A stretch of 64,000 nucleotides of DNA, taken from the NCBI GenBank assembly GCA_037389025.1, contig JARRJP010000013.1, positions 54,305 through 118,304 of the forward strand, given 5' to 3'. Positions within the stretch are counted from its first letter, which is position 1; each line of letters opens with the position of its first letter. Positions 20,186 through 37,319 of this stretch are shown here, in pieces. The notes beneath the pieces are model-generated. The model searched no databases and was not told where the DNA came from. It was given only the letters and a program-made list of their open reading frames with translations. The stretch is from Reinekea sp. (lineage in GTDB: Bacteria > Pseudomonadota > Gammaproteobacteria > Pseudomonadales > Natronospirillaceae). The position numbers and the translations under genes are program-made.

Positions 20186-20335
20186 TCACTTTACCACGAC
20201 GTTGTTCGCACCAATATACTTGTATTCATCTACTGAAATAATACTGGCGGTCTCTTCTGCATTTAACTGGCCACATAGGAGAAGAACACTCGTCGAAAAT
20301 AACGCTGAAATATTTTTAACCATTCGTTTCTCCAT
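20186..20335 (-). CDS. Hypothetical 49-aa secreted peptide (signal-peptide-like N-terminus)
   Basis: ATG 20335 is 1 nt after the PdxJ-like stop. MEKRMVKNISALFSTSVLLLCGQLNA|EETASIISVDEYKYIGANNVVVK has an n-h-c signal layout with an A-x-A-like site. Confidence 0.4.
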   Translation of the reverse strand: MEKRMVKNISALFSTSVLLLCGQLNAEETASIISVDEYKYIGANNVVVK

Positions 20336-20336
20336 A

Positions 20337-21068
20337 TTAATCACTGCAAATTTCCAAGTACCTTGAAACCACTTGGTCAATGCCATATTCAATACACTCC
20401 ATGGTAAATGCATGACCTATAGAAACTTCAGATATGTCACCTAAATCCAGGAGCGCTCTCAGATTTTCTAGATTTAGATCGTGTCCAGCATTCACGCGAA
20501 CACCGTGCTTATTTGCCAACTGAACACATTGAAGATAACGCTCTTTTGCTTCTACAAAATTCGATTGATTGAACTTTGTGGCCCATTCCTCCGTATATAA
20601 TTCCACTGCACCTATATTGTTCTCAATTATGCTTCCCATTTGAGTGATATTTGCATCGAGGAACACTGCACAGCGAATATCTGAACTAGCAAACGCTTTA
20701 TTCAACATGGAGAGATACTCTCCTTCATTCTGTACATCATATCCATGGTCGGAGGTAAGCTGGTTATCATCATCGGGTACTAATGTACATTGGTGCGGCT
20801 TAACGTCCTTAACTAGTTCAATAAACCTTTCATTTGGATTACCTTCAATATTGAACTCTATTTCCGAGTGTTTTCTCAAAAGGTCTTTTATTTCATACAC
20901 ATCTTCATATCTAATGTGACGTTGATCGGGTCTGGGGTGAACCGTAAACCCCTTAACCCCCAAGCCAATCAACCTTTCTACAAAATAGCCTAAATTAGGG
21001 TAATCGTTACCCCGTGAGTTTCTCAGCAATGCAAGCTTATTCAGATTTACGCTAAATAGAGTGCTCAT
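20337..21068 (-). CDS. pdxJ: PdxJ-family (pyridoxine 5'-phosphate synthase-like) TIM-barrel enzyme, divergent paralogue
   Basis: VNLNKLALLRNSRG, FTVHPRPDQRHI, NIEGN, TLVPD, VNAGHDL and VSIGHAF align along the full length with E. coli PdxJ motifs recalled from memory. Confidence 0.8.
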   Translation of the reverse strand: MSTLFSVNLNKLALLRNSRGNDYPNLGYFVERLIGLGVKGFTVHPRPDQRHIRYEDVYEIKDLLRKHSEIEFNIEGNPNERFIELVKDVKPHQCTLVPDDDNQLTSDHGYDVQNEGEYLSMLNKAFASSDIRCAVFLDANITQMGSIIENNIGAVELYTEEWATKFNQSNFVEAKERYLQCVQLANKHGVRVNAGHDLNLENLRALLDLGDISEVSIGHAFTMECIEYGIDQVVSRYLEICSD

Positions 21069-21076
21069 AGAAATAC

Positions 21077-21865
21077 CTAAATTACGCAGGAAAGTGTTTT
21101 GTTAAATTCAATATTATAAAAATAGAGACCTCCATGCCCGAAAAGCATTACATAATACGAAGGTTCAAAATTGCATATTTTAAAGCGTTTATCTCCTGAC
21201 AAATCGGGATAAAGCTGGTGATTTGTTCCCTTTATAGTTGTATAGGGAACCCCTTGATATTCACCGTGAATATTCTGATGACAGTGACCAAAAAACACAT
21301 GTTTTACAATGTCACTAAAACAAGAAAGTAATTTATAAAATTTGTCGCTATTTTCCAGGCCAATATCATCATAACACTTAACATTGATTTGAAAAGGGTT
21401 GTGGTGCATAAAAAGATATACATCACGTTTGTCTTTGCTAGATTGTTCAAGAACTCTTTTCAACCAATTCATTCGAGAAGAACACAAACTTCCTGACGAC
21501 CGACCGGGGACTGTTGTATCAAGAAATATAAATATCTTGTTGCCATACGCTTTACTGAACTGTACATACCTTCCCTGATAAGTATCTAATTCAATATGAT
21601 TGCTAGCCTGGAGAAAGCTGTCGTGATTTCCTAACAAGGTGTGATATGGAATGGTCAATTCTTGGTTACATTCCGAAAAATATCTATAAGAGATCTCAGA
21701 ACCGTCATTAGATATATCACCCATGCAAAATATCGCCTGCGCATCTGTATGGTGTTCAGCTATATGAGAAACCGCCTTCCTGTAATTAATATCTGAATTA
21801 CAGGAATAGGTTTCAACACTCCTCCCAGTCAAATGGAGGTCCGACAGTAAAATATATTTCTCCAT
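21077..21865 (-). CDS. Calcineurin-like metallophosphoesterase (CpdA/GpdQ-like)
   Basis: Motifs SDLHL, GDISNDG, GNHD, MHH and GHCH in canonical order. Confidence 0.8.
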   Translation of the reverse strand: MEKYILLSDLHLTGRSVETYSCNSDINYRKAVSHIAEHHTDAQAIFCMGDISNDGSEISYRYFSECNQELTIPYHTLLGNHDSFLQASNHIELDTYQGRYVQFSKAYGNKIFIFLDTTVPGRSSGSLCSSRMNWLKRVLEQSSKDKRDVYLFMHHNPFQINVKCYDDIGLENSDKFYKLLSCFSDIVKHVFFGHCHQNIHGEYQGVPYTTIKGTNHQLYPDLSGDKRFKICNFEPSYYVMLFGHGGLYFYNIEFNKTLSCVI

Positions 21866-21879
21866 TTATAGGTTACTGC

Positions 21880-22539
21880 CTACAATCGATTGTCGACATC
21901 ACCAGAATAAACAGTACCTCTATACTGTATTACTATGGAATGGGTATCTACATCATGACGCCAGCCTTTAATATCGTATTTATTTTTTAGGTCTGAAACA
22001 GTGTCATCTATATTAAAAATGGTTTTGCCTGCAATTCTATTTCTGAATTCAGTTTCGCTTTCAATGGGTTTATCGGATATTTCAGATTCATACATTTCGT
22101 ACAGGATTCTAAAGAAACGTACTGTAAGTTTCTCTTTGAATGATTCGGATATACTCTTCTGCCATATTCCAGGCTGGGAATAGAAGACCTGCATTACTGA
22201 GCCGAGATATTTTGAAACGGTTAATGCTTTATAAACTTCAGACTTGTTATCCAACGCGTCACTTGGAGATAATACATAACCTAAATTAAGATATTCCGAT
22301 AAGCAAAGAACTGTCTTTTCAATAACTTCGTGCTGAGCCATTGAAGGAAACCTTGGCCCCAAATGATTTGCTATTTCAAATATGCTCCACTTTCCGTTAA
22401 TCAACTTCCAAGCAGAGTTTGAAAATTCATCTAATCGGCACAAATCCGTCAGCTTAATCAGAAAGATATCTCCGTTAACCACCCTCCTTCTAACCGCATG
22501 ATGTTTCACTAATACATCACCCAAGGCAACCATAGTCAT
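21880..22539 (-). CDS. PqqD-like (RiPP recognition element-type) N-terminal domain protein with an unknown C-terminal domain
   Basis: Residues ~20-90, RLDEFSNSAWKLINGKWSIFEIANHLGPRFPSMAQHEVIEKTVLCLSEYLNLGYV, parallel PqqD [33 protein letters not shown]...VVEFLQ. ATGA overlap with the upstream gene. Confidence 0.55.
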   Translation of the reverse strand: MTMVALGDVLVKHHAVRRRVVNGDIFLIKLTDLCRLDEFSNSAWKLINGKWSIFEIANHLGPRFPSMAQHEVIEKTVLCLSEYLNLGYVLSPSDALDNKSEVYKALTVSKYLGSVMQVFYSQPGIWQKSISESFKEKLTVRFFRILYEMYESEISDKPIESETEFRNRIAGKTIFNIDDTVSDLKNKYDIKGWRHDVDTHSIVIQYRGTVYSGDVDNRL

Positions 22540-23348
22540 ACCGCTTCTCTTCTCAAACAGTAAGCTTTTTCAACCATCTTTTCCGAAAGATGAAGTGCAG
22601 TATTCACATAGTCTCTTTTGTCATATTTGTTTATTGGTAGGTTATGCATGAAAGACCAGTAATCCAAATACACTTCCCTCGCGTCAATATCGCTTTCATA
22701 TATTGCTTCCAAAATTTTAAAACGATGCTTGTTTTTAGGGTTAGTCCACCCTTTGGAGTAAAGCAGCAAATCTATCGAAAATTCCAGGGTTTCCTGGGAT
22801 CGCCGAATCGCACCGGATATATTCCCGCTGTTCAGCATGCCTACAGTGTCATCGAAAGAATCATCTATATAAATACGCTTATTCTCAAAAAGATATCGAT
22901 TGATTTTTACGCGATCAAAACGATCAACAATATCTGCATAGGCATCAGTATTCCTAACAACACGGCAATTAAATATTCTATGTGCGAAATCAATTTCGTT
23001 TTCATCTAGCGCATCCAAAAAGCTATTTTCAGCGTTATCTACCTGTAAGCTATCTATTTTGGACGCGAGCCTATCTATGGACTCGTAGCTCCATATTTCC
23101 ACATCGACTCTTCTACTTTTAAAGTAATGGATTTGGATTTTAAACCTACAGCCATCAGTCACGAATTCTTTAATGGTATTGAGATCTTCGACCACCATAT
23201 ACACGTCAATATCAGAGCTATCATTTCCAATACCCTCCACCAACGAACCGGCTATCCATACTGGAGTACCTTCTGTAACTTGATTTCTAATAAGATCAAG
23301 TATTTCATCGTGGTGGACTCCTCCAATTGATTCATTCATATATTTCAC
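22536..23348 (-). CDS. Pol-beta superfamily nucleotidyltransferase with a helical C-terminal domain (paralogue of 30638-31678)
   Basis: GSLVEGIGNDSSDIDVYMVV (G-S...D-x-D) NTase motif. VDVEIWSYESIDRLASKIDSL is shared with the paralogue. Confidence 0.75.
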   Translation of the reverse strand: MKYMNESIGGVHHDEILDLIRNQVTEGTPVWIAGSLVEGIGNDSSDIDVYMVVEDLNTIKEFVTDGCRFKIQIHYFKSRRVDVEIWSYESIDRLASKIDSLQVDNAENSFLDALDENEIDFAHRIFNCRVVRNTDAYADIVDRFDRVKINRYLFENKRIYIDDSFDDTVGMLNSGNISGAIRRSQETLEFSIDLLLYSKGWTNPKNKHRFKILEAIYESDIDAREVYLDYWSFMHNLPINKYDKRDYVNTALHLSEKMVEKAYCLRREAV

Positions 23349-23351
23349 TCT

Positions 23352-23963: not shown

Positions 23964-23966
23964 AAC

Positions 23967-24596
23967 CTAAAGATAACTGGCAATTATTGATTTAACTTGA
24001 TTTAGCGTCTGCTCAAACGAACCATCATTACTCACGCTTTCCACGTCTAAATCAGAATTCTCGAAGAGATTGACATATGCCGCCAATAATTTCTTCTGGC
24101 ACTCTTTGGTTTCAAATTCATGAATGTCATCGGAACTGCTATCCATACGTTGCCGAATTAGCTCTTCTTTCAGAGTGATAAAAATCACCTTCTCTGGGGC
24201 CGGAACGGAATCTAAAATTTGTAGGGAAATATTGCTTGGCTGCTCATTAATTAGCGTAAAAGCCTTAAAACAAGGCGTATGCCTGTCTGTTACAACGAGC
24301 TTATATTGAGTCGAACTTCCTTCTAATACGGGTCTAATTACCTGATTGTAATAGTTTACATAATCTATCGCACAGCTAATTGCTATAGCCTGATTGAATT
24401 CCCCGCTATACCAATCTTCAATGCCATTTTTTCTAGGAAAGCATTTTTCCACTGTAGATTCTGCTATAGCAGGTCCTCGACCAACAAAATACACCTTCCC
24501 TTTCAACTCGGGTTCAGTTTCAAGTTTTTTAAAAATTGAGGTTTTTCCCACGCCGTCAATACCGCATAGGGAAATAACTGGAATTATTTTTTTCAT
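23967..24596 (-). CDS. dTMP-kinase-like P-loop kinase, paralogue 2
   Basis: Walker A LCGIDGVGKTS, then FPRKNGIEDW and TDRH. Confidence 0.7.
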   Translation of the reverse strand: MKKIIPVISLCGIDGVGKTSIFKKLETEPELKGKVYFVGRGPAIAESTVEKCFPRKNGIEDWYSGEFNQAIAISCAIDYVNYYNQVIRPVLEGSSTQYKLVVTDRHTPCFKAFTLINEQPSNISLQILDSVPAPEKVIFITLKEELIRQRMDSSSDDIHEFETKECQKKLLAAYVNLFENSDLDVESVSNDGSFEQTLNQVKSIIASYL

Positions 24597-25339
24597 TAAC
24601 TAGACACCATTAACTTAGCTGCTTCTTGATAATTAAATAGCCCATCAGACAATTCAACCACTGCGCCATTAAGAGCGTAGTTTGGTGACATTATCTGTTG
24701 GTAAATAGGCTCCACAACATTTTCCACTGCAAGCGGCCTTTCAATAACAAGTTGGCTACATAATTCATTTATGTATTCTTGTCCTTTATCAAATAGACCT
24801 ATACTGAAAACGCAAACACTTCTTCCAGAACCTGAAATCTCCATTGCTGCTGATCGAACAAAATTGCAGAGAGCGGTCGCGGTAGCGTTGTATAAACCGT
24901 TATATTTTACCGCCCCTTTTTCTCCCGCCAGACCAGTAATATTGATAAACTGCCAATTCTTCTTATGCTTTTTTAAATAACTAAAATAGCTGGCCATTGC
25001 TTCCACGGGAGCACGAAACCCCACCCGGGTGACGTTTTCTATTTCTTCTTGTGATATTTCATATACTGAAGAGTGGTTCCACATTCCACAACAGTAAAGC
25101 ACGGTGATATTTTCGTAATTATCTACTTCATCACGAATGACATCGCCTGCAACTACACTTTTGGCAGCTAAATCCATTGAGATTAATTTGATAACGAATT
25201 CTTCTTTGTTGAGACTATCTATATATTGGTTTTTATTTCTATAAACACCAATAATATTCACTTTTCCGCTCTCACCTAGTCTCTTAGAAATACTAAAACC
25301 GAGAAAAGAAGATATGCCATAGATAACAACCAGATTCAC
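24596..25339 (-). CDS. Short-chain dehydrogenase/reductase-like Rossmann protein
   Basis: VVIYGISSFLGFSISKRL glycine-rich dinucleotide motif. I prefer GTG 25339, just after the GT stop at 25341. The ORF-track ATG 25381 would overlap the GT gene by 41 nt. Confidence 0.55.
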   Translation of the reverse strand: MNLVVIYGISSFLGFSISKRLGESGKVNIIGVYRNKNQYIDSLNKEEFVIKLISMDLAAKSVVAGDVIRDEVDNYENITVLYCCGMWNHSSVYEISQEEIENVTRVGFRAPVEAMASYFSYLKKHKKNWQFINITGLAGEKGAVKYNGLYNATATALCNFVRSAAMEISGSGRSVCVFSIGLFDKGQEYINELCSQLVIERPLAVENVVEPIYQQIMSPNYALNGAVVELSDGLFNYQEAAKLMVSS

Positions 25340-25340
25340 T

Positions 25341-26471
25341 CTACATACACTCCAGTATTTTACGAATGGAATTCTCAGCATTTTCGAAACCGAGGTTCGG
25401 CTTTAGTTCTGTTTCTTCGGGATCAAGTTTACTTGCGCTTGTTATACACAAATCTAAGTCTTCGATAAACGAACAAAAATATGCATTTTCTGTTGACTCA
25501 GCAAATTCGGAGGCAATCAAGAATTGCTCGTCGTGTCCAGAGAGAGCCCATACGACCTTTCCTCCGGCTATATTTTTCACATCAGAAAGAAAACCAACAC
25601 CAGCACGAGATACAACCAATTTGGCCTCAGATAGGTATCTGTAGTACTCGAGAGATATTGAATCCACTACGAGCCGATCAATACCTGAAATCTTCTGTAA
25701 GGAGTTGTTTAACTCTTCCCCGAGGCATGAAAATACCTTTACGTGGCTACGTTTATCAAAACAGTTAAGTGCACTCTCTATAGCCTTGTGGGTATAGTCA
25801 TACGTTTCCGAAATCCATTGAGCGGCATCTACTTCCTCTGAACTATATGAAGCGGTATTTGAGGGGAACTCAACGCCGCCACCGTTCGCAATAACAACAA
25901 TATTGTCTTCGGTCTGAGCACCACAACTAGGTAGAGTATAAAAACCATGGCTCACAATCTTGCTAGAAATATTACTATTACTAATTAACGTTTTTTTCTC
26001 CGGCAGTTTATCCAAGGGTAGAAGGTAGTCACTCTCTCCTAGTAGACTCACCAGATAAGTAGAAGGCCCTTTATTTTTTGGCGTATCAATAAGTATTTCA
26101 GGGTTGAATAAGCCTACAGCTTTACAGCTGGTTCCCTTAGTAAGCGGCCCCATTAAATACTCACCACCAAAAAAACAAAGGTCTGCATTAATACTCTCTA
26201 TTAGCGGAAGTATATTTCGTACACCGTGATCGTAGGGGCATAAGCCCGGCCAATCCAAATACTCCTTACGCACATCCAGCTGATGCAGCTTGTATTCAAT
26301 ATCAATAGGGCCACGACCGGAAAGGAATTCATAACCGTTTGAATAGCTTGCGATATGCACTTCAAGCCCTTGATCATAAGCTGCTTTCGCCAGCGCTAAA
26401 CCCGGTATAACATGGCCCAACCCTGGCCGCCCCCTCAATACAAACAGAGCTACCTTCTTATTTAAATTCAT
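25341..26471 (-). CDS. GT-B fold glycosyltransferase (MurG/GT1/GT28-like)
   Basis: N-terminal GRPGLGHVIPGLALAKA and C-terminal VVSRAGVGFLSD...GHDEQFLIASEF resemble MurG/UGT-type donor-binding motifs. Confidence 0.65.
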   Translation of the reverse strand: MNLNKKVALFVLRGRPGLGHVIPGLALAKAAYDQGLEVHIASYSNGYEFLSGRGPIDIEYKLHQLDVRKEYLDWPGLCPYDHGVRNILPLIESINADLCFFGGEYLMGPLTKGTSCKAVGLFNPEILIDTPKNKGPSTYLVSLLGESDYLLPLDKLPEKKTLISNSNISSKIVSHGFYTLPSCGAQTEDNIVVIANGGGVEFPSNTASYSSEEVDAAQWISETYDYTHKAIESALNCFDKRSHVKVFSCLGEELNNSLQKISGIDRLVVDSISLEYYRYLSEAKLVVSRAGVGFLSDVKNIAGGKVVWALSGHDEQFLIASEFAESTENAYFCSFIEDLDLCITSASKLDPEETELKPNLGFENAENSIRKILECM

Positions 26472-26473
26472 GG

Positions 26474-27073
26474 TTATAGCGCTTCCAGAATATGTTCTAC
26501 AATTTCTGAGACGGAGTGCTCCAGCTCTTGAGTATTGTCTACCGTCACTACATCGGACATGTCAGAAAATAGACCATCATAGCTATCAGAAAGCTTTCGT
26601 ATTACATCTGGCGTTTCATCGTTACTCGGCCCTCCTCTAAGATGTTGCCTTTCTATAGCAACTTCGGGAGGTACTTTTATGTAAAAGGTTTTGTCCGGCG
26701 TCCTTACATTGTCAAACATCGAGAAATAGTCTTTATCTGTATTCACAGCTGACATGTACGACGTGTAACAATAACTATACCTATCACATATAACGATGGT
26801 ATTCTCCTTCATTAGAGGCTGAATGTATTTGTCATAGTGAGATATAAAATCCATACCCGTAGCAATAGAGACTAGCTGCGCAAATTTACCCCCACTCCAG
26901 TCCTGATCTCCACCCCAAAAATCGCAAATAAGGTTTACGTTGGTTTTAATATCCTTTTTCAGAGCAGTAGAATAATGCCCAATCTCCTGCAGGCGTTTGG
27001 ATACCAAATCTACCAAAGTAGATTTACCACAACCATCTACGCCACATAACACAAATAATTTTGATGAACTCAT
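26474..27073 (-). CDS. dTMP-kinase-like P-loop kinase, paralogue 3
   Basis: Walker A LCGVDGCGKST, then GGDQDW and CDRY. Confidence 0.7.
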   Translation of the reverse strand: MSSSKLFVLCGVDGCGKSTLVDLVSKRLQEIGHYSTALKKDIKTNVNLICDFWGGDQDWSGGKFAQLVSIATGMDFISHYDKYIQPLMKENTIVICDRYSYCYTSYMSAVNTDKDYFSMFDNVRTPDKTFYIKVPPEVAIERQHLRGGPSNDETPDVIRKLSDSYDGLFSDMSDVVTVDNTQELEHSVSEIVEHILEAL

Positions 27074-27085
27074 AGTTCTAATTCT

Positions 27086-27757
27086 CTATACAACGCGATA
27101 ACTTTCTAAAAGAGTCAATAGGTTATCGATATCTGACCGAGTAACTTCTCTGGTATTTTTTAAACTCTCAGGAGTTCTTTCCTTTGAGCCATAGCGCCAC
27201 CAGGTTTCTTTTGTTCCAAAATCGTAATGGATCGCTCTCTGTTTCTGAGCCGGTGAGCGCAACATTAAGGATATACACTTATCCTCTCCTACCGCTCTCA
27301 AGTTGTGGATAACAGAGTGGTCAATAAAGTAAGGGATATTCTTTACTTCATTTTTTATGTACACAGGTTTAATTTGGTCTGCGTCATGTAGAATCGAGCC
27401 GTCATCCATTGGGCTATACAAAGTATGTTTGTAGCCACCGTGCAGTATCAGACTTGTAAAGTTCATTCTGTGGCTGTGTGGAATATCACTGGAATGTGGA
27501 TACATCACATGCATACGCAGTCTCACGCCAGTTTCTTTGTCACTGAAGAGAACATATTTTTCGATATTATAGTCTTTCTCGCAGCGTCCAAATTTTTCTT
27601 CATCTTCATAGAGATCAGTTACCAATGATTTAAGTAGCTCCTTATCTTCACTCAAGTTCATCAGCGCATTTTTTGTGACGACTTCCACCGACTCGGTATC
27701 TTTCCAATCTAACGCCAAGACCGGCCCCAAGATGTCGTTTAGCTTTTCAATATTCAT
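27086..27757 (-). CDS. Hypothetical protein, possible cupin-fold metalloenzyme
   Basis: MHVMYPHSSDIPHSHRMNFTSLILHGGY...VIHNL is a His-rich beta-strand pattern reminiscent of cupin or cysteine-dioxygenase-like proteins. The assignment is weak. Confidence 0.35.
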   Translation of the reverse strand: MNIEKLNDILGPVLALDWKDTESVEVVTKNALMNLSEDKELLKSLVTDLYEDEEKFGRCEKDYNIEKYVLFSDKETGVRLRMHVMYPHSSDIPHSHRMNFTSLILHGGYKHTLYSPMDDGSILHDADQIKPVYIKNEVKNIPYFIDHSVIHNLRAVGEDKCISLMLRSPAQKQRAIHYDFGTKETWWRYGSKERTPESLKNTREVTRSDIDNLLTLLESYRVV

Positions 27758-27759
27758 AT

Positions 27760-28362
27760 CTATACCTTCCTAATGATAGCTTTTAACCATTTATCTTCCT
27801 TCCGGTGCGCTCGAGTGTCGATGGAAACCCAAAGTTCAACAATTTGAACACCAGGAATGTCATTTATAAACTGTTTGAACCTTTCCTCATTCATGTGAAC
27901 AAACAATCGGCCACTTTTTTCACTTATTTTGTCTTCGCTTCCATATTTATAAGAAGCGTAAAACACTCCGTCATTCTCCAAGTATGAAATAAGCTGTTTG
28001 TAAACAGATGCAAGATCTGCATAAGGAACATGCAACAGAGAGGCGCTCGCCCATATACCATCAAACTTTTGATTTCCGGGGTCATATGTATCAAACCTTT
28101 TATGCTTTACATCTACACCTGTTCGCTCTCTAGCTATGGAACACATCTCGAACGATGCATCAAAAGCATCGACGTCAAAACCTTTGGAAAGAAAAAAGTC
28201 GATGTCTCTCCCCGGCCCGCATCCTGCTTCTAAAATGGCACCACTATTTGCAATATATTTAGTGAACCTTTCCCGAGCATCGTCTACATTTTCTTCCAAA
28301 CTTCTCGATGTGAACTTGTTTGCATTCTCGTCGTAGTACTTAATTGTGTGCTCAACTAACAT
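27760..28362 (-). CDS. Class I SAM-dependent methyltransferase
   Basis: Motif I ILEAGCGPGRD, with post-I acidic residue FDVDAFDAS. 200 aa. Confidence 0.8.
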   Translation of the reverse strand: MLVEHTIKYYDENANKFTSRSLEENVDDARERFTKYIANSGAILEAGCGPGRDIDFFLSKGFDVDAFDASFEMCSIARERTGVDVKHKRFDTYDPGNQKFDGIWASASLLHVPYADLASVYKQLISYLENDGVFYASYKYGSEDKISEKSGRLFVHMNEERFKQFINDIPGVQIVELWVSIDTRAHRKEDKWLKAIIRKV

Positions 28363-28376
28363 TGCTAGCTTCCAAT

Positions 28377-29642
28377 CTAATATTTAAAAAATGGGGAATC
28401 GGCCTCTGCAAAAGGTATTAGCTCATCAAACCAGCTTGCGCTACCCGAATATTTTGATTTAAAAGGTATCTTCACTCTTGTCGAATCCCTATGCTGAATA
28501 AACTGCATTAGAAAATTCCCATTCTCGCCTGGCTCATAGTGGAGGATTTCAACCTTCCCATACTTTGTGCTCATTACCGGCCCACGAACGGTACGAGCCA
28601 GTCCGCTTGTCACCCGAATAGATTTATGAAAGATATTATATGCTTCCCAAAGCGGGACAGAGAAACAATTATTCGCTCCGGTGTCTCGTTCAACGAACAT
28701 ATAGTATGGAACAATCCCTCGATGTACCTGCGCTCTCCATAAGTTCGCCCAATTATCAGGGTTGTCATTTATGCCCTTTAATAAAGGCCCTTGGCTTCTT
28801 ATTACCGCTCCGGTGGACTGAATTGCGGCAATAGCTCTATCGGATATCTCGGTACTCATTTCTTTGGGGTGATTGTAGTGCGCCATAAAAGCCAAATGCT
28901 TACCCGAAATGGTCACCTTCCTAAACAGATTTAGAAGATCATCAGAATCAGAGTCTGTTACAAATCTTTGCGGCCAGAATGTAAGGGCTTTAGACCCGAT
29001 TCGAATATTTTCCACATGTAAAAAGTCTTTACCCAATAACGGCTCAATCATCTTTCTCAAATTACTGGTTTTCATAACCATGGGGTCACCACCGGTAATC
29101 AAGATGTCCGTTATATTTCGGTTAGCTCTTACATACTCCAGCAAGTCGGTAATTTCCTTCGACTCCATCCTCAACGGTTTATCACCAATAAATTGGGCCC
29201 ACCGAAAACAGAAAGTACAGTAGCTATGGCAAACCTGACCCGATGAAGGAAAGTAAAGAACGGTTCTTTCATATTTATGTTGCAAACCAGAAACCGGTAT
29301 TCCCCCCACTTCTGGTATATTCATTTTTAGCTGATCACCAGGGTGAGGGTTCAGCTCAGAACGTATTTCTTCTACTATTGGTCTAATGGACTCTCTTCCT
29401 AACGCTAACCCTTTCTTGATTTTCTCGTACTGCTCATTTGTGAGCATGCTTTTATTTGGAATAGTTAACCTGTATATAGGGTCATCTCTATAATTATCCC
29501 AATCAATCAATGAGTCGCAGACATACTCGTTAACACGAAAGGGCAGCACTTCAGAAACCACCTTTATTTCTTCCAGTGCTCTTTTTCCAATTTTCTTTGC
29601 TGAGTGTTCTGATGTTGTTATTATATTGCTACTTATAGACAT
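28377..29642 (-). CDS. KamA-family radical SAM enzyme (lysine 2,3-aminomutase-like)
   Basis: CHSYCTFCFRW CxxxCxxC cluster, ILITGGDPMVM, and a length and layout typical of KamA/EpmB/AblA-type PLP-dependent aminomutases. Confidence 0.8.
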   Translation of the reverse strand: MSISSNIITTSEHSAKKIGKRALEEIKVVSEVLPFRVNEYVCDSLIDWDNYRDDPIYRLTIPNKSMLTNEQYEKIKKGLALGRESIRPIVEEIRSELNPHPGDQLKMNIPEVGGIPVSGLQHKYERTVLYFPSSGQVCHSYCTFCFRWAQFIGDKPLRMESKEITDLLEYVRANRNITDILITGGDPMVMKTSNLRKMIEPLLGKDFLHVENIRIGSKALTFWPQRFVTDSDSDDLLNLFRKVTISGKHLAFMAHYNHPKEMSTEISDRAIAAIQSTGAVIRSQGPLLKGINDNPDNWANLWRAQVHRGIVPYYMFVERDTGANNCFSVPLWEAYNIFHKSIRVTSGLARTVRGPVMSTKYGKVEILHYEPGENGNFLMQFIQHRDSTRVKIPFKSKYSGSASWFDELIPFAEADSPFFKY

Positions 29643-29663
29643 GTATTTTCCGTAAATTCCCTA

Positions 29664-30650
29664 TCAAACAAGTTCATTTAGGGCTTGCTCGCACTGACGA
29701 TAATTGAATCTCGCATATTGTTTGTCTGCGCCAAAGGTTTCGCCACCTACCACCTTAAATTCTATGCCTTGGATACCTAACTTGCCGTTTTGGATTCTTT
29801 CGCCAGCTTTAAGCCACATATATTGAACAAGCAATCCAGTAACTTCATAACCCTCACCTGCAATTAGCCCGCTCACCGTGTCGAGTACTTTTTTAGATTT
29901 TTCCTTCTCGGCTTTGGCCCATTTGGAGAAATTATTCATATTCTCTGCCGCTGTAACTTGAGCAACTGAAGATACGGGGTTAAGAAATCTGCATTTAATC
30001 TCTACTAAGTTATCTATCAGAGACTTACAGGCATTTATAAACCCAACTCTTAACCCAGGCATTCCGGCCCATTTTGAAAGTGAATCAACAACTGCAACAT
30101 GGGTATCATCCACCTGCGCGGAAAACCGTTCACAGTCTCCAAAGGAATAATGAGCAAGACACTCATCAATTATCAACATACACCCGTTTTCTTTCGTCAC
30201 CGCTACTATTTTTTTCATCTCAGCACAGGAAAAGAAAAAACCTGTTGGGTTATGAGGGTTATTTACTATTAGTACCGAACATCGCTTAGAAGCGTCTTCT
30301 ATAGAACGAATGCTGGTATAAGAATACCGCTTAATATCGTAATCAAGGCCTCCAAATATCTTTGCGAACCCCGGCCAGGCGATATCTGATATAGCTACGC
30401 TTTTTTCTTTTCGTTGAAAAAATAGGGCAAGCAGCATCAGACCTTCTTTTACTCCGCTGGTGACCAACACATTATCAGTAGTTATATGGTTCGCATATTG
30501 GCTCTCAACGTAACGCGCTCTTAACTCATGCAACCCAAATTCGCAGGTGTAGTCTGCCACCGTAGAAATTTTAACTTGCGTCTTCATGAGCGCATCTGAA
30601 TATAAACCACCTCCAGCGTCCGCCAACACTGCTTTTTTCACGAGATCCAC
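29664..30650 (-). CDS. Class I/II PLP-dependent aminotransferase or decarboxylase (HisC/CobD-sized)
   Basis: VNNPHNPTG and DSLSKWAGMPGLRVGF (PLP lysine). 328 aa. Confidence 0.8.
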   Translation of the reverse strand: MDLVKKAVLADAGGGLYSDALMKTQVKISTVADYTCEFGLHELRARYVESQYANHITTDNVLVTSGVKEGLMLLALFFQRKEKSVAISDIAWPGFAKIFGGLDYDIKRYSYTSIRSIEDASKRCSVLIVNNPHNPTGFFFSCAEMKKIVAVTKENGCMLIIDECLAHYSFGDCERFSAQVDDTHVAVVDSLSKWAGMPGLRVGFINACKSLIDNLVEIKCRFLNPVSSVAQVTAAENMNNFSKWAKAEKEKSKKVLDTVSGLIAGEGYEVTGLLVQYMWLKAGERIQNGKLGIQGIEFKVVGGETFGADKQYARFNYRQCEQALNELV

Positions 30651-31678
30651 AGCCGAGTTGGTTCAGTTCCCTCAACATACACCTTGCTTCGATAGGTATA
30701 TTCCATATACTCATAGCTCTCCACATCAATATTCTTTAAATCATACCGGTTAGCTAATAACTCAATAGATTTGATATTATTTGGTGTAACGCTATATTTA
30801 TCTAGAATACTGATGGATAAATTATAAATTTGGTCACAAAAATCCAGACAATCTAGAACATACCTTTCTTTGTCTGAACTCTTCTCCATTTGATAACCAA
30901 TAAAATATATTAGCTTGAAGAAGTCACCGGAGAGCGAAGAGATATCCTGTTTTTTACTTTCTTGTAAATATGTATACATCCATTTTGGATCTACATTAGT
31001 ACAGCCATTTATATGCAAATACGCTTGCACTTGTCTCTTTAAGTTAATTTGAGATATTTCAACAGCACGATCGCGTTCCCCCTTTGATATAGCGCCAAAG
31101 ATGTCCAACAATATTGAAAAATCTGATGCCAACCAACGATAGGCAAGATAGCAGTACTTTTCTTTGGAGAATTGCGCCTGAATCTCTTTAAGCTTTCTTT
31201 CGTTTTTAATAGGAAGTGCTTCAAATATCCTATGTATAATGCTGTTTTCTCTATATTCTAGATACTTTGACAGCATTTCCAAATTACTAGTAGCGTACTC
31301 AAATAGACTCTCAACTTTATTGGCTACTTCCGCTATCGACCGGTAGCTTTTAAATTCAACATCAACTTTAATATTGGTTTCAGGTATTACCGTGTGAACC
31401 AAAAATACTTCTTCGTTCTCCACTTCCGAGATGTTGGTTGAGGTAACTATGGTTCTATTAACAGTTAACACTCTGTGGTGTTTTTCAAAATCGATTTCTT
31501 TTGCTTTAGGTAAGTTTTCTCTAAACACATAGATGTCTAGATCAGAGAATTTGTTACCTATACCTTCAATCAAGCTACTTGTGGCAATTATCAGGTCATC
31601 ATCACCAGCATAAGCATTATCCAGAATAAACTGAACTGGAACATTTACTTTACCATCTAATATTTTTATTGATTTCAT
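30638..31678 (-). CDS. Pol-beta superfamily nucleotidyltransferase with a helical C-terminal domain (paralogue of 22536-23348)
   Basis: SSLIEGIGNKFSDLDIYVF NTase motif, then VDVEFKSYRSIAEVANKVESL. 13-nt overlap with the downstream gene. Confidence 0.75.
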   Translation of the reverse strand: MKSIKILDGKVNVPVQFILDNAYAGDDDLIIATSSLIEGIGNKFSDLDIYVFRENLPKAKEIDFEKHHRVLTVNRTIVTSTNISEVENEEVFLVHTVIPETNIKVDVEFKSYRSIAEVANKVESLFEYATSNLEMLSKYLEYRENSIIHRIFEALPIKNERKLKEIQAQFSKEKYCYLAYRWLASDFSILLDIFGAISKGERDRAVEISQINLKRQVQAYLHINGCTNVDPKWMYTYLQESKKQDISSLSGDFFKLIYFIGYQMEKSSDKERYVLDCLDFCDQIYNLSISILDKYSVTPNNIKSIELLANRYDLKNIDVESYEYMEYTYRSKVYVEGTEPTRLWIS

Positions 31679-31693
31679 CTTTAGTACACATTT

Positions 31694-33058
31694 TTACACT
31701 ATGGTAGGTATTCTGGCTTCGGGTTTATACAATAGATTTTCAGCAGTCTTAATCGTCTTAACAATTCTCTCTGCCATAATGTTGAGTTCTTCTATGGTGC
31801 ATATGTAAGGTGGAGCAATTAATATGTGGTCACTCGTACCTTTCCCACTAAATCCCTCGCAGGCATAGAGTAGAATCTCGTTTTCCATTCCGATATTCTT
31901 AATAACATCAGGCATATTTATATTTTTCGAAAATGGTGTCTTATCAGACTTATTTGATACAAACTCAATAGATTGAAGAAATCCACGCCCCCTTATATCT
32001 CCCACTATCCCGCAAGAATTTAACTCCTCTTTCAATATCGAAGTTAGATACGCGCCGTTATTTTTTACCCTGCTTACCAAATCATTTTCTAGCACGTATT
32101 TCTGAGCAGCATAGCCAGCAGCACAAGACACGTTATGACCAACGTATGTACCAGCATGAATAAAACCAGATTTCATTTGTTCTATGCACACCGCAACTCG
32201 TTGACTACACAGCGTGGCCGCTAACGGCTGATACCCAGAGGCAATCGTTTTACCAACCGCAACAATGTCTGGCTGGATATTCTCAGCCTCGAATGCATAA
32301 TAATGTCCAGTTCTACCCAGGCCACACATAACCTCATCGAGAACCAATAGGATGTTGTATTTCTTGCATACTTTCGCGGTTTTCTCAAAGTAATCCTTTT
32401 CTGCCGTTACAGCTCCAGAAGTCGATCCGCCTACGGTTTCTATCAGGAAGCAGGAGATTTTCTCTGCACCAAGACGTTCTATCTCTTTTTCTAAGCTATT
32501 AATACAGTAGTCTATGTATTCGGTAGTGGTTTCAAAGGTGTCAACATTTCGATATGAGTTGCAAATTTTTATATTTTCGGAATGCCCGCTTTTTTTATCG
32601 CAAAAATATTTCTTTCTACTAAGCTGGCCACCTACTTCTAATGTTTTCAGAGAACCACCGTGATAGCTTAACTCTCGACACAGAACGATTTCTTTCTTGC
32701 CAAATCCGTTAAGTTTCCAATACTGGGCGGCCATTTTAATGGCCACTTCGATTGCCTCAGTACCTGATGGAGAAAAAACTACTCGAGAAAGCCTTCCCTT
32801 GGACTGTGTTACCAACAAGTCTGCTAGCTTTTCAGAAGCTTCCGAAGTAAAAGTTCCGGTGTGCGAAAATGGAACTTCTTTCAGCTGATTTATTGTCGCT
32901 TCGATAACAGCTTCATTGCTATAACCTAGAGATGCCACAGCTCCTGAGCAGCTATCCAAAAACCGACGGCCAGAACGATCGTTAACATATATACCACTAC
33001 TAGCAGCACAGAGGATTTTTTCAAAAGAACCCCTTTTAAGAATACTCGAGCCCATCAC
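31694..33058 (-). CDS. Class III PLP-dependent aminotransferase
   Basis: LVLDEVMCGLGRTGHYYAFE, DIVAVGKTIASG (PLP lysine) and SYHGGS. 454 aa. Confidence 0.85.
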   Translation of the reverse strand: MMGSSILKRGSFEKILCAASSGIYVNDRSGRRFLDSCSGAVASLGYSNEAVIEATINQLKEVPFSHTGTFTSEASEKLADLLVTQSKGRLSRVVFSPSGTEAIEVAIKMAAQYWKLNGFGKKEIVLCRELSYHGGSLKTLEVGGQLSRKKYFCDKKSGHSENIKICNSYRNVDTFETTTEYIDYCINSLEKEIERLGAEKISCFLIETVGGSTSGAVTAEKDYFEKTAKVCKKYNILLVLDEVMCGLGRTGHYYAFEAENIQPDIVAVGKTIASGYQPLAATLCSQRVAVCIEQMKSGFIHAGTYVGHNVSCAAGYAAQKYVLENDLVSRVKNNGAYLTSILKEELNSCGIVGDIRGRGFLQSIEFVSNKSDKTPFSKNINMPDVIKNIGMENEILLYACEGFSGKGTSDHILIAPPYICTIEELNIMAERIVKTIKTAENLLYKPEARIPTIV

Positions 33059-33069
33059 GCTTTCCTTAA

Positions 33070-33870
33070 CTAGAACCTTTCATAGTGGCGTTTTTCACAC
33101 ATTTTTTTGAATGTGTTTCTGACCAAATCACTTGCTTTGTTCACTTCGTAGTACCATTCAGGATGCCACTGCACAGCAATAACATCTCCCAGCTCAGGGT
33201 TAAGAGAAAAGGCTTCTACCACACCATCTTTACTAATGGCTTCAACTCTCAAACCAGAACCTAACTTATTGACTGCCTGTCTATGTAGGGAATTCACATC
33301 CAGTACTCTTTCAGTTTTATTCTTCTTGCTGTATTCCTGCGCAAGAATTCCGCCCTCTTGCAGGACTACTTTATGGGAATCTATGTATTTTTCTTCAAAA
33401 ACACCTGTGATGTGTACTCTGTGAGTTTCTATCTGCTCGTCCGTTGGAAGCTTTTGATACAAGGTCCCACCTAAAGCGACATTTATCTCCTGCATCCCAC
33501 GACATATTCCCATTAATGGAATTTTTTCCTCAATACACGCCAAGACCAAAGGCAAAGTGGTACTGTCTCTATCAAGGTCAATTCGGCTGAAATCAATATT
33601 TCCTTTCTCATCAAGAACTATATTTTCCTCGCCGTACTTTTTGGGCTCCACATTGGAGGGACTCCCCGTGAGAAGTACGCCATCCAACCTTTTGACAACT
33701 TCTCTTAATGTGCTGGCACGGGTTTGAGTATCTTTATACCTCCTCCCCATACAAGGAATCATAAGAGGGCTATACCCCAGACCTTTAACAATATAGTCCA
33801 GGTACTTATCAAATACTGAATGGTGGGGCGCATCCAATATTTCCACACAGCTAGATACTCCAATAATCAT
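33070..33870 (-). CDS. Peptidase C26 / gamma-glutamyl-GABA hydrolase (PuuD)-like class I glutamine amidotransferase
   Basis: Nucleophile elbow GICRGMQEINVALGGTL and the His region VQWHPEW. Confidence 0.8.
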   Translation of the reverse strand: MIIGVSSCVEILDAPHHSVFDKYLDYIVKGLGYSPLMIPCMGRRYKDTQTRASTLREVVKRLDGVLLTGSPSNVEPKKYGEENIVLDEKGNIDFSRIDLDRDSTTLPLVLACIEEKIPLMGICRGMQEINVALGGTLYQKLPTDEQIETHRVHITGVFEEKYIDSHKVVLQEGGILAQEYSKKNKTERVLDVNSLHRQAVNKLGSGLRVEAISKDGVVEAFSLNPELGDVIAVQWHPEWYYEVNKASDLVRNTFKKMCEKRHYERF

Positions 33871-33875
33871 AATTT

Positions 33876-34265
33876 TTACTCTATATTTTCAGCTTCACCT
33901 GGGTATTGGCCAAGCTCTCGTAGTTTTACGTAGTGAGGGATATCTTTAGTCGCGCGCTCAAACTCAGTATGACTAACACCAGGCATAGACAAACTTTTGG
34001 TGACACGCCCAGGAAATCTTCGCTTGTAATCTTCACGAAAGGCTTCCCAATCTGACAGTTCATTTACGGAGAAAACTCCCATCCAATCCCACTCGCCTGC
34101 CATGTTCATTGTGTGTGACCCGATGGTTTGCTTAACTTTCGGATACCAATCCTTAAAGAAGTTGTTAATTGCTTCTTGGCTCTTTGCTTCTTCTTCGGGC
34201 GTTTGTGCATAAAAAGCATCGTTATGTTTTACTAAATGAAAAATGAGGTACTTATAAGGCGCCAT
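33876..34265 (-). CDS. Hypothetical 129-aa protein, possibly a dimeric alpha+beta barrel (darcynin/Dabb-like) fold
   Basis: YLIFHLVKHND...WDWMGVFSVNELSDWEAFREDYKRRFPGR. This is only a pattern resemblance. Confidence 0.3.
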   Translation of the reverse strand: MAPYKYLIFHLVKHNDAFYAQTPEEEAKSQEAINNFFKDWYPKVKQTIGSHTMNMAGEWDWMGVFSVNELSDWEAFREDYKRRFPGRVTKSLSMPGVSHTEFERATKDIPHYVKLRELGQYPGEAENIE

Positions 34266-34277
34266 ATTTTTTACTTC

Positions 34278-35424
34278 CTATTGATTAGACAAGATTTGAA
34301 TAAGATTTCTGTATATTTCATTTTGAGCATTCAAGCTAAGATCAAATGCAGGACAAATGTGCGCATACTTTCTAACGCTATGCTTATCCCCACTTTTCTT
34401 CATTACAGATGTCCCTATATATGCCCACATATCGAAGCCCGTTAAATCAGACGCGAACTTAGCGGCCTGCTCTGAATTCATATCCAGGCGAATAGAGGTT
34501 GGGGTTACACTTATGCCAATTTTCAATAACTGCGGAAAATTCTGTCAGACCATGCGTGAATGTAAGTGGAGCTATCCCGGAAGACTGAACGGCCTCTGTA
34601 ATATCAGAAGATAAAAGAGTGCAGCTCAAGGGATGTAAACCGGAAGTCAACCCTTTGGATACAATTGAAACATCTGGTAATACCTGTTCTTCTTTTACAC
34701 CGCATGAAAGAAAAACACCATGCCTAAATGCACCTGATGCGACATCGTCTAGCACAACCAAAATTTCATGATTCCGGCAATAGGAAATAATGTCTCTTAA
34801 AACTTTACCGTCACTGTTAAACTTCCACCCTGTTGTTGGCTTTCCTTCAAGCAATAGCAATGCGGGGTAATGAATCCGCTTGCTTTCAACTAACTCTTTT
34901 AAATGATCAATAAATGTTGATCTATCTAAATTTTCATTACAGGCTAGGTATTCTTCCGATGGACATTCGTCAATGACAATCACACGCTTGTCTTTGGAAC
35001 CACCGGAAGCACGAGCCGATAGATTTCGACATAAATCTGTATTTCCATGATAACTACCTTTTCTTACAATAAAGCTTTGAATCTCTTTACCATATTTATA
35101 ATTACAGTAAACATTAGCTGCCCAGATACCAGATTCAATGGCATCAGAACCACTACTTGACCACAACATGTCTTTATATTTTTTGTTACATTGAGCAATG
35201 ACACTTTTCTGCAATTTTCTCTTCTGTTCTGACTCAAAACCAGCAGACGGAGCAATATGATTTAATACAGATTTTGAAAGCTCACAAAGCGTCTCAACAT
35301 TTGAAAAGTTTTGGGTTAATGACCCACCACTAATATCAACAAGAAACTTGCCATTCCCAAGGGAAAAATTAGAACCAATTTTTTCTTTGATATTGAGGAT
35401 ACTTTTATTCAAGTGACGTATCAT
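34278..35424 (-). pseudogene. Class III aminotransferase split by a frameshift near 34515-34530 (ORFs 34459-35424 and 34278-34526)
   Basis: The upstream ORF has LVVLDDVASGAFRHG and SIVSKGLTSG (PLP lysine). The downstream frame continues with the expected C-terminal ...HICPAFDLSLNAQNEIYRNLIQIL. The frames overlap around TTGAAAATTGG. Confidence 0.6.
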
Positions 35425-36056
35425 CAGGTACCAACCTGCAATTCTTCATCTTCTAAAAGAACCGCTTTCGTAATATCCACAATAGACACGATTGGTATAT
35501 CTAGATTTCTAGAGATACTTTCTAGTTCGGATTTTCGAGCAATAGAACCAGCAGAATTTAATATTTCACAAATCACACCAGCCCCCCCGATCCCAGCTAA
35601 ATCAAGTAAGTCTACGATCGCTTCAGTATGCCCATCTCTTACTTTCAGGCCACCTGGCTTAGCTAATAGAGTTGGAATATGACCAGGAGTACAGAATAAT
35701 TCAGGGGTGCTATCGATATCACTTAACGCCTGTATTGTCTCACTACGATCTTCTGCAGAAATACCTGAAGAACCATTGGCAAGGGAAACAGGACAACCAA
35801 AAGGAGTATCATGCACATCCTTATTATTGCTACGTAAACGTGTAATTTCAAACTTTTCTGCAAACTCACTTGGCAAAGAAACACACAAAAATCCCTTTGC
35901 AAAAGTCAACGCAAAATTCACCAATGCTGGAGTAGCATATTTTCCACTAAAAGCAAGGTCACCTTCACCCTCTCTATCATCTCGATCACGAATTATTATC
36001 GGTTTACCAGAAACCAAATAATCGATAGCCTTGTCTACTGATTTTGAATATTTCAT
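35424..36056 (-). CDS. ribB: RibB-family 3,4-dihydroxy-2-butanone-4-phosphate synthase-like enzyme
   Basis: DRDDREGEGDLAF, GISAEDR, TPGHIPTL, DGHTEA and GVICEI align with E. coli RibB catalytic motifs recalled from memory. Confidence 0.85.
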   Translation of the reverse strand: MKYSKSVDKAIDYLVSGKPIIIRDRDDREGEGDLAFSGKYATPALVNFALTFAKGFLCVSLPSEFAEKFEITRLRSNNKDVHDTPFGCPVSLANGSSGISAEDRSETIQALSDIDSTPELFCTPGHIPTLLAKPGGLKVRDGHTEAIVDLLDLAGIGGAGVICEILNSAGSIARKSELESISRNLDIPIVSIVDITKAVLLEDEELQVGT

Positions 36057-36086
36057 AATGTGTCCACACGCTAGATCATACTAGTT

Positions 36087-36317
36087 TTAGGTAACAATTA
36101 ATGCTGGAGAAAAAGTTGAATGCTGATCTTCGGGAATGCCAATTGAAGAGCCAGCCTCAGGCGCAATTGCTACTATTGCGATAGTATTCGGAACCTTATC
36201 TTTTTTTATTCTTAAGTTATTACAAATAATATTTTTTTGATTTTCGGTTAACTCAATTGTAGTTGTAGTTGCCATATTAATATCCGATTGCAGTTGTTTA
36301 TTTGTAAAAATAGCCAT
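36087..36317 (-). CDS. Small leader ORF of the island operon (62-94 aa depending on start); candidate precursor or scaffold peptide
   Basis: Open frame 36087-36371 with ATGs at 36335, 36317 and 36275. From 36275 it reads MATTTTIELTENQKNIICNNLRIKKDKVPNTIAIVAIAPEAGSSIGIPEDQHSTFSPALIVT. Ends 30 nt upstream of the ribB-like gene. No known family. Confidence 0.4.
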   Translation of the reverse strand: MAIFTNKQLQSDINMATTTTIELTENQKNIICNNLRIKKDKVPNTIAIVAIAPEAGSSIGIPEDQHSTFSPALIVT

Positions 36318-36896: not shown

Positions 36897-37319
36897 TCAT
36901 GAAATTTCTTTTTTTACATGAGCCCATTTTTTTGGCGTATAACCATACCAGCGTTTAAATGATTCTATAAATGCACTTGAGCTTCTAAAAAACAAAAATT
37001 TAGACACCTGATCAACAGTACAACCTTCAAAGGATAGCAAAAATAACGCATACGGCTTTCTAATCTCATCTTTAACCCCTAAATATGTCATTTTTCGATC
37101 TCTCAATCTTCTATATAAAGTTCTTTCACTAACACATAGAGATGAGCAAACCCCATGCAAATCAAAAGGATTTTTACTATTACTATTAATCTTTTTAATA
37201 ATAACTAGAAAAACGCTTCTCAAAAAATCATCTTTACAATACTTAATGTTGATATGATTGATAATTTTCCTAATTGACTTTTTTGAAACTTTTTCCATTT
37301 TCATTTCCATTGAAGGCAA
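36897..37319 (-). CDS. AraC/XylS-family HTH regulator (DNA-binding domain only, 140 aa)
   Basis: LCVSERTLYRRLRD...TVDQVSKFLFFRSSSAFIESFKRWYGYTPKKW is the double-HTH AraC C-terminal signature. Confidence 0.75.
   Translation of the reverse strand: MPSMEMKMEKVSKKSIRKIINHINIKYCKDDFLRSVFLVIIKKINSNSKNPFDLHGVCSSLCVSERTLYRRLRDRKMTYLGVKDEIRKPYALFLLSFEGCTVDQVSKFLFFRSSSAFIESFKRWYGYTPKKWAHVKKEIS

Follow-up and report, generated by a model that had tools for sequence, protein, structure and literature searches.

A PqqD-type recognition domain coupled to a pol-beta-type nucleotidyltransferase marks a rare candidate peptide-modifying gene cluster in Reinekea sp.

In fosfazinomycin (fzm) clusters the gene fzmT, which encodes a recognition element for peptides that are made on ribosomes and modified after translation (RiPP recognition element, RRE), always adjoins the nucleotidyltransferase (NTase) gene fzmU (PMC13622209, bioRxiv preprint, Sept 2026). 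The kinases FzmF and FzmK convert a phosphonate to a triphosphate-like compound, which FzmU transfers in the manner of a nucleoside triphosphate (NTP) onto the scaffold peptide FzmZ; FzmT is dispensable for FzmU activity in vitro (PMC13622209). Here we analysed a 64,000 nucleotide stretch of DNA from Reinekea sp. (assembly GCA_037389025.1, contig JARRJP010000013.1, positions 54,305 to 118,304; in the following called the window), in which the gene of a 219-residue protein with an N-terminal RRE overlaps an NTase gene. From sequence, structure prediction and analogy we consider it fairly probable that this protein is the non-catalytic peptide-docking subunit of a peptide-modifying NTase. The best precedent for the cluster, by analogy, appears to be the pair FzmT/FzmU together with its two kinases.

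Tailoring of the lasso peptide pseudomycoidin provides a second, looser analogue: the kinase PsmK and the NTase-fold enzyme PsmN modify a hydroxyl residue of the peptide (PMC6993621). This system and that of paeninodin (PadeK) resemble the present cluster in the combination of a kinase with an NTase-fold enzyme, in the presence of a PqqD-type RRE and in a product that is, or here would be, phosphate-linked. They differ in that the kinase is HPr-kinase-like, that PsmN resembles ANT(2'') and that the lasso peptide is tailored late, whereas no lasso genes are present here. The partner NTase further resembles MNT-HEPN and KNTase-type enzymes in its NTP_transf_2 plus HEPN-like architecture. MNT enzymes AMPylate protein tyrosines, such that the NTase fold is able to nucleotidylate polypeptides. 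In contrast to MNT-HEPN systems, the gene of the window lies inside a biosynthetic operon, without a separate HEPN toxin and without PADLOC matches. Anti-phage defence or a HEPN-MNT toxin-antitoxin system was rejected as an explanation, with PADLOC empty for the RRE, the NTases and the peptide and the kinases giving generic P-loop matches only.

The 219-residue protein is encoded on the minus strand by an open reading frame (ORF) with an ATG at 22539 and a TAG stop at 21880-21882. A first-pass annotation had reported this ORF without its strand and had described residues ~20-90 as following the PqqD pattern; the checked translation agreed with the residues quoted there exactly. PF05402 (PqqD) was the top Pfam match of the protein but by itself remained sub-threshold (E 0.019, 15.8 bits versus a gathering score of 23.4), and the NCBIfam PqqD models matched weakly (14.5 and 13.7 bits versus cut-offs of 101 and 46). 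Two orthologues from related loci (designated by L and a number in the following) passed the Pfam gathering score, namely those of L009 from Sorangium (85 residues, 27.9 bits) and of L011 (205 residues, 32.1 bits). In the PF05402 search that the annotation had suggested as a check, the gathering score was thus reached by these orthologues and not by the window protein. Altogether PqqD was matched by 8 of 12 family members (best E 5.6e-5), a hidden Markov model (HMM) of the family's N-terminal domain recovered the L009 and L011 orthologues at E 2e-25 and 7e-11, and the Arenibaculum homologue WP_327501561.1 is already annotated as a PqqD family protein. The protein sequence by itself retrieved nothing from the PDB. 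The family profile aligned end to end with PqqD 3G2B (E 0.009) and also matched a lasso PqqD chaperone and PqqCD, while hhalign against the 3G2B sequence gave E 2.3e-5. The operon does not contain PqqA/B/C/E genes, and the NCBIfam PqqD equivalog cut-offs were missed.

For the structure we used an AlphaFold2 model built on a 12-sequence family alignment (mean confidence score pLDDT 88), which replaced a poor single-sequence prediction that was devoid of strands (pLDDT 55). The model has a beta3-alpha3 fold with strands at residues 16-21, 24-29 and 32-36 followed by helices at 38-46, 53-63 and 69-86. Foldseek searches of the PDB with this model returned a top list made up almost entirely of RREs (TbiB1, PqqD, lasso B1, ThcOx, TigE, PbtF, McbB, MccB, SuiB), with the RREs of TbiB1, PqqD, lasso B1, ThcOx, TigE and PbtF among the 15 best matches. 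The best superpositions had template modelling (TM) scores of 0.76-0.80 and root mean square deviations of 2.0-2.4 A (5V1V, TM 0.78 and 2.3 A; 5SXY, 0.78 and 2.0 A; 6JX3, 0.80 and 2.0 A). Prediction and superposition thus yielded a winged-helix fold that matches PqqD 5SXY, in agreement with the proposed PqqD pattern, which the family profile and hhalign had supported. Lasso B1 (TbiB1 5V1V; 6JX3) and PqqD (5SXY, 3G2B) accordingly share with our protein the beta3-alpha3 fold and, at the level of orthologues, PF05402; they differ from it by a sequence identity of just 8-19% and by the NTase partner and the extra C-terminal domain found here. The lasso B2 transglutaminase-like protease and the asparagine-synthetase-like cyclase (C) are not among the operon's 20 genes. 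According to the family alignment and the model, residues of strands beta1-beta3 and of helix alpha1 are maintained across very large evolutionary distances. Profile, structure-prediction and comparative evidence together establish the N-terminal domain as a PqqD-type RRE.

RREs have the winged helix-turn-helix fold in common with DNA-binding domains, and Foldseek did list the DNA-binding domain of the response regulator NsrR at rank 40. A pathway regulator that binds DNA through an ordinary winged helix is nonetheless a hardly credible reading of the protein: the top structural matches were all RREs with a Foldseek probability of 1.0 compared to 0.51 for NsrR, sequence profiles matched PqqD only, fusion to an enzyme and translational coupling (see below) are atypical of regulators, and a dedicated AraC regulator is already present.

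The RRE gene is tied to the gene of a 270-residue NTase (NT1), whose orthologues match NTP_transf_2 and HEPN in Pfam. The NT1 stop overlaps the RRE start by 4 nucleotides as ATGA (GTA TGA / ATG ACT at 22541-22534). The translational coupling to a pol-beta NTase that had been noticed on the first pass was thus recovered, and NT1 carries the signature GS-x9-SD-x-D with a downstream Glu. In the alignment of NT1 with its homologues this signature, E84, H123-R124 and D167 were invariant. Stop and start codons of NTase and RRE overlapped in every locus seen, by 4 nucleotides also in L001, L004, L005 and L011 and by 11 nucleotides in Sorangium L009. The gene pair as such was conserved in L004, L005, L009, L011 and L016. 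In L007 both reside in a single polypeptide (P0018, NTase plus RRE), with the C-terminal domain split off as the next ORF. Synteny together with this Rosetta-stone fusion indicates that NTase and RRE work together. A dTMP-kinase-like gene adjoins the pair in L004, L007, L009, L011 and L016, and orthologues of the second such kinase of the operon (K2) were found in L004, L007 and L011. The neighbours of the gene in the window include three dTMP-kinase-like genes and two NTase paralogues, as the description "embedded among kinases and nucleotidyltransferases" had implied.

Further NTase-RRE arrangements were seen beside these. L011, which holds the main kinase-NTase-RRE block, contains at 3601-4777 (plus strand) a second pair of an NTase (263 residues) and a stand-alone RRE-like protein (137 residues), next to a 911-residue FAD-dependent halogenase-like/AMP-binding protein. 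A contig of JGI 3300042731 again has an NTase-RRE fusion (367 residues) adjacent to a split C-terminal domain (113 residues). The second NTase of the operon (NT2), a paralogue of NT1, is conserved in many clusters. Its high-GC counterpart in L007 (375 residues, 3763-4890, minus strand) gave a weak C-terminal PqqD match (E 0.01) and a weak DUF6001 match, both of which are lacking in NT2 of the window. An RRE at the NT2 C-terminus was rejected, the L007 match being the only one and weak, with none in the 346-residue protein of the window and a negative result with the N-domain HMM.

A candidate ligand of the RRE is encoded at the head of the operon. The first-pass annotation had named two ORFs as candidate peptides, and these fared differently. 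For the 20186-20335 product, as for a 73-residue ORF at 19957-20178, all related loci lacked a homologue, and both were dropped from the cluster. The other candidate, a 62-residue peptide, proved to be a conserved cluster member: it co-occurred with the RRE in 6/6 loci covering both (window, L004, L007, L009, L011 and L016). A profile search retrieved 16 clusters, all annotated as hypothetical, with Saccharospirillum salsuginis (82% identity), a Sedimenticola metagenome-assembled genome, Sorangium sp. So ce726 and metagenomes as sources. Homologues were found in L004, L007 (a 62-residue ORF of 47% identity), L008/L015, L009, L010, L011-14 and L016. The 17 homologues are 40-82% identical across genomes of 39-70% GC. 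Throughout, the length is constant at 62 residues, T4, L9, Q13, L21, P29, G46, P48, F55, P57 and L59 are invariant, and the ends are nearly so (MATT... and ...F(S/A)PALI(V/I)T). Pfam and NCBIfam assign no family to the peptide. A sub-threshold match to a daptide aminotransferase suggested a daptide (C-terminal Thr plus aminotransferase plus methyltransferase). We rejected this reading: bioA-type models outrank the aminotransferase match, Sorangium has Ala in place of the C-terminal Thr, and none of the other daptide-type genes was recognised in the cluster.

Since the RRE is tied to the NTase and a dedicated conserved peptide is at hand, we propose that the protein docks this peptide and thereby offers it to the NTase. 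The RRE would bind the 62-residue peptide. The RRE protein, probably made 1:1 with the coupled pol-beta/HEPN-type NTase, would hold the peptide at the NTase active site, where the enzyme would form a phosphodiester on a peptide nucleophile. The candidate acceptor is Thr4 of the N-terminal MATT motif, which is the sole invariant hydroxyl residue, with the C-terminal Thr62 as an alternative. The transferred group may be an ordinary nucleoside monophosphate (NMP) or, in analogy to FzmU, a phosphorylated small molecule that the dTMP-kinase-like enzymes would raise to an NTP-like triphosphate. For the latter, the RibB and PdxJ paralogues of the operon could supply phosphomonoesters of the dihydroxybutanone phosphate (DHBP) and the pyridoxine-phosphate type as kinase substrates. 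Members of the dTMP kinase family, i.e. NMP-kinase-like enzymes, phosphorylate a phosphomonoester, and the products of RibB and PdxJ are phosphomonoesters. A scheme leading from a phosphomonoester via a di-/triphosphate to a peptide hydroxyl is therefore coherent. We infer the binding, the modification site and the chemistry of this docking model. For the minimal cassettes described below, a more parsimonious guess is that the peptide is simply nucleotidylated and/or phosphorylated. The C-terminal domain probably docks the NTase or the set of kinase, short-chain dehydrogenase/reductase (SDR) and glycosyltransferase, which is a guess.

Peptide-directed NTase or kinase chemistry, as suggested on the first pass, remains the best-supported reading, to which gene overlap, L007 fusion, constant company of the peptide and the fzm precedent all point. 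Its second part, that this chemistry takes the place of a radical SAM (rSAM)/SPASM partnership, calls for a reservation: the cluster holds a KamA-like rSAM, and in Sorangium a B12-binding rSAM directly follows the RRE gene. An rSAM partner is thus possible in some lineages. One could go further and let the RRE present the peptide mainly to another enzyme, e.g. the KamA-like rSAM, the Sorangium B12-rSAM, a kinase or the glycosyltransferase, such that the NTase link becomes secondary. PqqD-type RREs classically serve rSAM enzymes, among them PqqE, MftC and the sactisynthases, and besides the Sorangium arrangement there is a conserved KamA-like rSAM, shared by the window, L004, L010, L011 and L013. 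The KamA family, however, acts on free amino acids, without SPASM domain or RRE dependence. Moreover, no rSAM adjoins the NTase-RRE pair in L016, L005 and L007, and fusion or translational coupling to the RRE was seen for the NTase only. We consider a primary role with another enzyme quite unlikely.

A second alternative does without peptide binding. The RRE would be a relic or a structural adaptor that stabilises or regulates the NTase or the kinase/SDR/glycosyltransferase set, and the substrate of the NTase would be a small molecule such as an aminoglycoside-like intermediate or a target of self-resistance. Small-molecule enzymes dominate the operon, a gene annotated 'Aminoglyc_resit (weak)' follows the RRE gene in L004, the peptide lacks a YxxP motif, and FzmU works without FzmT in vitro. 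On the other hand, the peptide accompanies the RRE in all six loci and sits beside kinase, NTase and RRE in minimal cassettes that lack the small-molecule enzymes, and the RRE fold with its conserved beta1-beta3/alpha1 residues has been kept over very large distances. We judge a mere adaptor unlikely.

Several points weigh against the peptide-docking model. The peptide is conserved along its whole length and not only in part; it contains no YxxP motif, which is typical of ligands of PqqD-type RREs, and no Tyr at all; instead of serving as a leader/core precursor, it may fold as a small protein. None of the operon's genes is a RiPP-cluster-typical protease or exporter. As FzmT illustrates, an adjoining RRE need not be essential. 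The comparison with FzmT/FzmU covers gene arrangement and cluster content, and the kinases here are dTMP-kinase-like P-loop enzymes, not ATP-grasp enzymes as FzmF. Finally, the first class-III aminotransferase gene (34281-35424, minus strand) is frameshifted in this genome, and the pathway may therefore be impaired. Compared to the 419-residue orthologue of L013, residues 1-311 lie in one frame and 339-419 in another; near 34513-34523 the gene has lost ~27 residues.

The fzm cluster and the present one both place an RRE gene directly beside a gene of a pol-beta-superfamily NTase and contain two or more kinases. They would further have in common phosphorus-bearing small-molecule precursors and a small ribosomal peptide as possible assembly platform for a small molecule that a large set of ordinary enzymes produces. 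The present cluster differs from fzm in the absence of PepM/phosphonate genes, of an asparagine-synthetase-like hydrazide synthetase and of an AurF-like enzyme, and no asparagine-synthetase-like enzyme with a fused RRE is found in the operon. Its peptide has 62 residues instead of 22, shows conservation from end to end and contains no N-terminal YxxP. Furthermore, the RRE carries or is accompanied by the extra domain of ~120 residues, and fusion to the NTase is possible. Carrying the analogy furthest, an aminated phosphomonoester derived from RibB/PdxJ would be raised to an NTP-like triphosphate by the NMP-kinase-like enzymes and transferred by the RRE-guided NTase to a Thr of the peptide, which would give a new class of peptide-small-molecule conjugates; the product may instead be a peptide-scaffolded metabolite or cofactor. 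We put this joint reading forward as a tentative one, with a fairly low chance of being correct.

The fusion of the RRE to a C-terminal domain of about 120 residues, likewise noticed before, was corroborated, and Pfam and PDB searches revealed no relative of this domain. It comprises four helices and a three-stranded sheet. In the family alignments W126, R141, F142, E148, W193, Y211, G213, D214 and R218 are invariant, and all homologues terminate exactly one residue past the invariant Arg (R218). According to hhalign the domain is unrelated to the NTase, and an inspection by eye did not show the HEPN Rx4-6H motif. It occurs as a stand-alone protein of 105-115 residues (P0010, P0014) and as a separate 113-residue ORF in L007, while the Sorangium cassette (L009) lacks it. 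The domain is a separable module. It was found wherever the block of SDR, glycosyltransferase and two kinases was found.

The target is gene 18 of ~20 co-directional, tightly packed genes that run on the minus strand from 36275 down to 20337 (Table 1). In order of transcription these encode the 62-residue peptide, a RibB-like DHBP synthase, a class-III aminotransferase, a 129-residue protein, a Peptidase_C26/GATase protein, a class-III aminotransferase, NT2, a class-I/II aminotransferase, a KamA-like radical SAM aminomutase, a methyltransferase, a 223-residue protein, the dTMP-kinase-like protein K1, a GT28-like protein, an SDR, two further dTMP-kinase-like proteins, NT1, the target, a metallophosphoesterase and a PdxJ paralogue. 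Synteny of the small-molecule genes extends to Saccharospirillum salsuginis, the Sedimenticola genome and metagenomes. The SDR and GT28/MurG-like genes are conserved alongside the kinase-NTase-RRE block. L004 and the contig of JGI 3300042731 contain PdxJ as well, and an AraC gene likewise flanks the S. salsuginis cluster.

Table 1. Positions of the features in the window (all on the minus strand) and the basis of their assignment.
Feature	Coordinates	Strand	Basis
219-residue two-domain protein (N-terminal PqqD/RRE plus C-terminal domain)	21880..22539	-	ORF, translation, homologue family, AlphaFold2 model
RRE (PqqD-like winged-helix) domain, residues ~10-90	22270..22512	-	Pfam, family profile, hhalign, Foldseek
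C-terminal domain, residues ~96-219, four helices plus three-stranded sheet	21883..22254	-	family alignments
NT1, 270-residue pol-beta-type NTase, helical HEPN-like C-terminal half	22536..23348	-	weak Pfam NTase matches; orthologues
K3, dTMP-kinase-like P-loop kinase, 203 residues	23352..23963	-	Pfam Thymidylate_kin; NCBIfam DTMP_kinase below cut-off
K2, dTMP-kinase-like P-loop kinase, 209 residues	23967..24596	-	Pfam Thymidylate_kin
SDR (261 residues) and GT28/MurG-like glycosyltransferase-like protein (376 residues)	24596..26471	-	Pfam adh_short; orthologues Glyco_tran_28_C; synteny
K1, dTMP-kinase-like P-loop kinase, 199 residues	26474..27073	-	Pfam Thymidylate_kin 65.7 bits
RibB-like through K1, small-molecule enzymes of the operon	26474..36056	-	Pfam, NCBIfam, synteny
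NT2, 346-residue NTase paralogue, SS-x9-SD-x-D (signature Gly -> Ser)	30638..31678	-	alignment
62-residue conserved peptide MATTTTIELTENQKNIICNNLRIKKDKVPNTIAIVAIAPEAGSSIGIPEDQHSTFSPALIVT, first gene of the operon	36087..36275	-	homologues in related loci
Metallophosphoesterase (262 residues) and PdxJ paralogue (243 residues), final genes of the operon	20337..21865	-	Pfam
AraC-family regulator, upstream of the operon	36897..37319	-	Pfam HTH_18/HTH_AraC

The family is rare. When 1.84 billion representatives were scanned exhaustively with HMMER, 18 RRE-family proteins came up at E < 1e-3, of which ~13 are full-length (~220 residues). A word-indexed homology search with the target protein returned only itself, and scanning genomes and metagenomes with A2, an alignment of the RRE family, gave no match. 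With the peptide alignment, a scan of 185,579 species-representative genomes found Saccharospirillum salsuginis only and a metagenome scan found one contig. Two cassettes are particularly compact: L016 contains the peptide, a dTMP-kinase-like kinase, NTase and RRE/C-terminal domain within 2.9 kb, and Sorangium L009 contains peptide, NTase, RRE, B12-rSAM and kinase. The conserved core consists of peptide, kinase, NTase and RRE. RibB, aminotransferase, C26, KamA, PdxJ, glycosyltransferase and SDR are lineage-specific additions, present in the marine gammaproteobacterial and several high-GC versions. Literature searches retrieved no description of the architecture of RRE plus C-terminal domain, of its pairing or fusion with an NTase, of the peptide family or of the cluster as a whole. 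The domain itself is of a known kind; the architecture, the NTase pairing, the peptide family and the cluster are apparently undescribed.

The cluster (20337-36275) has a GC content of 39.4% compared to 48.4% in the remaining window, and in the L013 and L014 contigs a phage-integrase gene lies just upstream of the peptide gene. Low GC and phage-integrase neighbour suggest horizontal transfer. Nucleotide identity to L013 amounts to 93-95% downstream of 34522 and is undetectable upstream; this junction therefore has the appearance of a breakpoint left by recombination in a mosaic cluster.

Further observations concern individual genes and the flanks. The 129-residue protein (33876-34265, minus strand) has no match in Pfam, NCBIfam or PADLOC. 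Its gene nevertheless shows the highest conservation in the cluster, with identities of 93% (S. salsuginis), 88% (Sedimenticola) and 61% (high-GC loci), and always sits between aminotransferase and C26 peptidase. For the KamA-like gene (28377-29642, minus strand) three starts are annotated in near-identical contigs (394, 421 and 442 residues); its product stays far below every NCBIfam aminomutase equivalog cut-off. Between the AraC and peptide genes (~36330-36860, minus strand) lies a stop-riddled frame that by eye resembles a remnant of an IS3-family transposase OrfA (KRTHKQYTKEFKEEA), with seven stop codons confirmed in 36443-36850. The high-GC relative of the cluster on the JGI 3300042731 contig adjoins a non-ribosomal peptide synthetase module, and PdxJ there forms part of a 643-residue fusion protein. 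A flank of the cluster in the window (13209-18912, plus strand) carries an acetoacetyl-CoA synthetase-like gene and a module of H-NOX (HNOB), hybrid histidine kinase and response regulator. This module probably serves NO-sensing signalling that has no relation to the cluster.

RRE domains are a handle for the discovery of new ribosomal-peptide pathways. In the present case the RRE leads to a family of precursor or scaffold peptides without database annotation and to a new accessory domain. For a pol-beta/HEPN NTase as the RRE partner there is a single biochemical demonstration, that of a 2026 preprint (PMC13622209). The cluster recruits paralogues of vitamin biosynthesis (RibB, PdxJ) and three NMP-kinase-like proteins; the rare combination of adaptor, NTase, nucleotide-kinase-like enzymes and peptide points to a new peptide-linked natural product. 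The compact L016 and Sorangium cassettes offer an easy entry point, and the cluster is a good lead for genome mining. If the conjugate reading were true, "NTP-surrogate" chemistry would extend from phosphonates to phosphate esters, and a new precursor-peptide family as well as a new RRE-associated domain would be defined. If the docking model is correct, joining activated phosphorylated small molecules to ribosomal peptides by means of an NTase would be a strategy of general use and not an oddity of fosfazinomycin.

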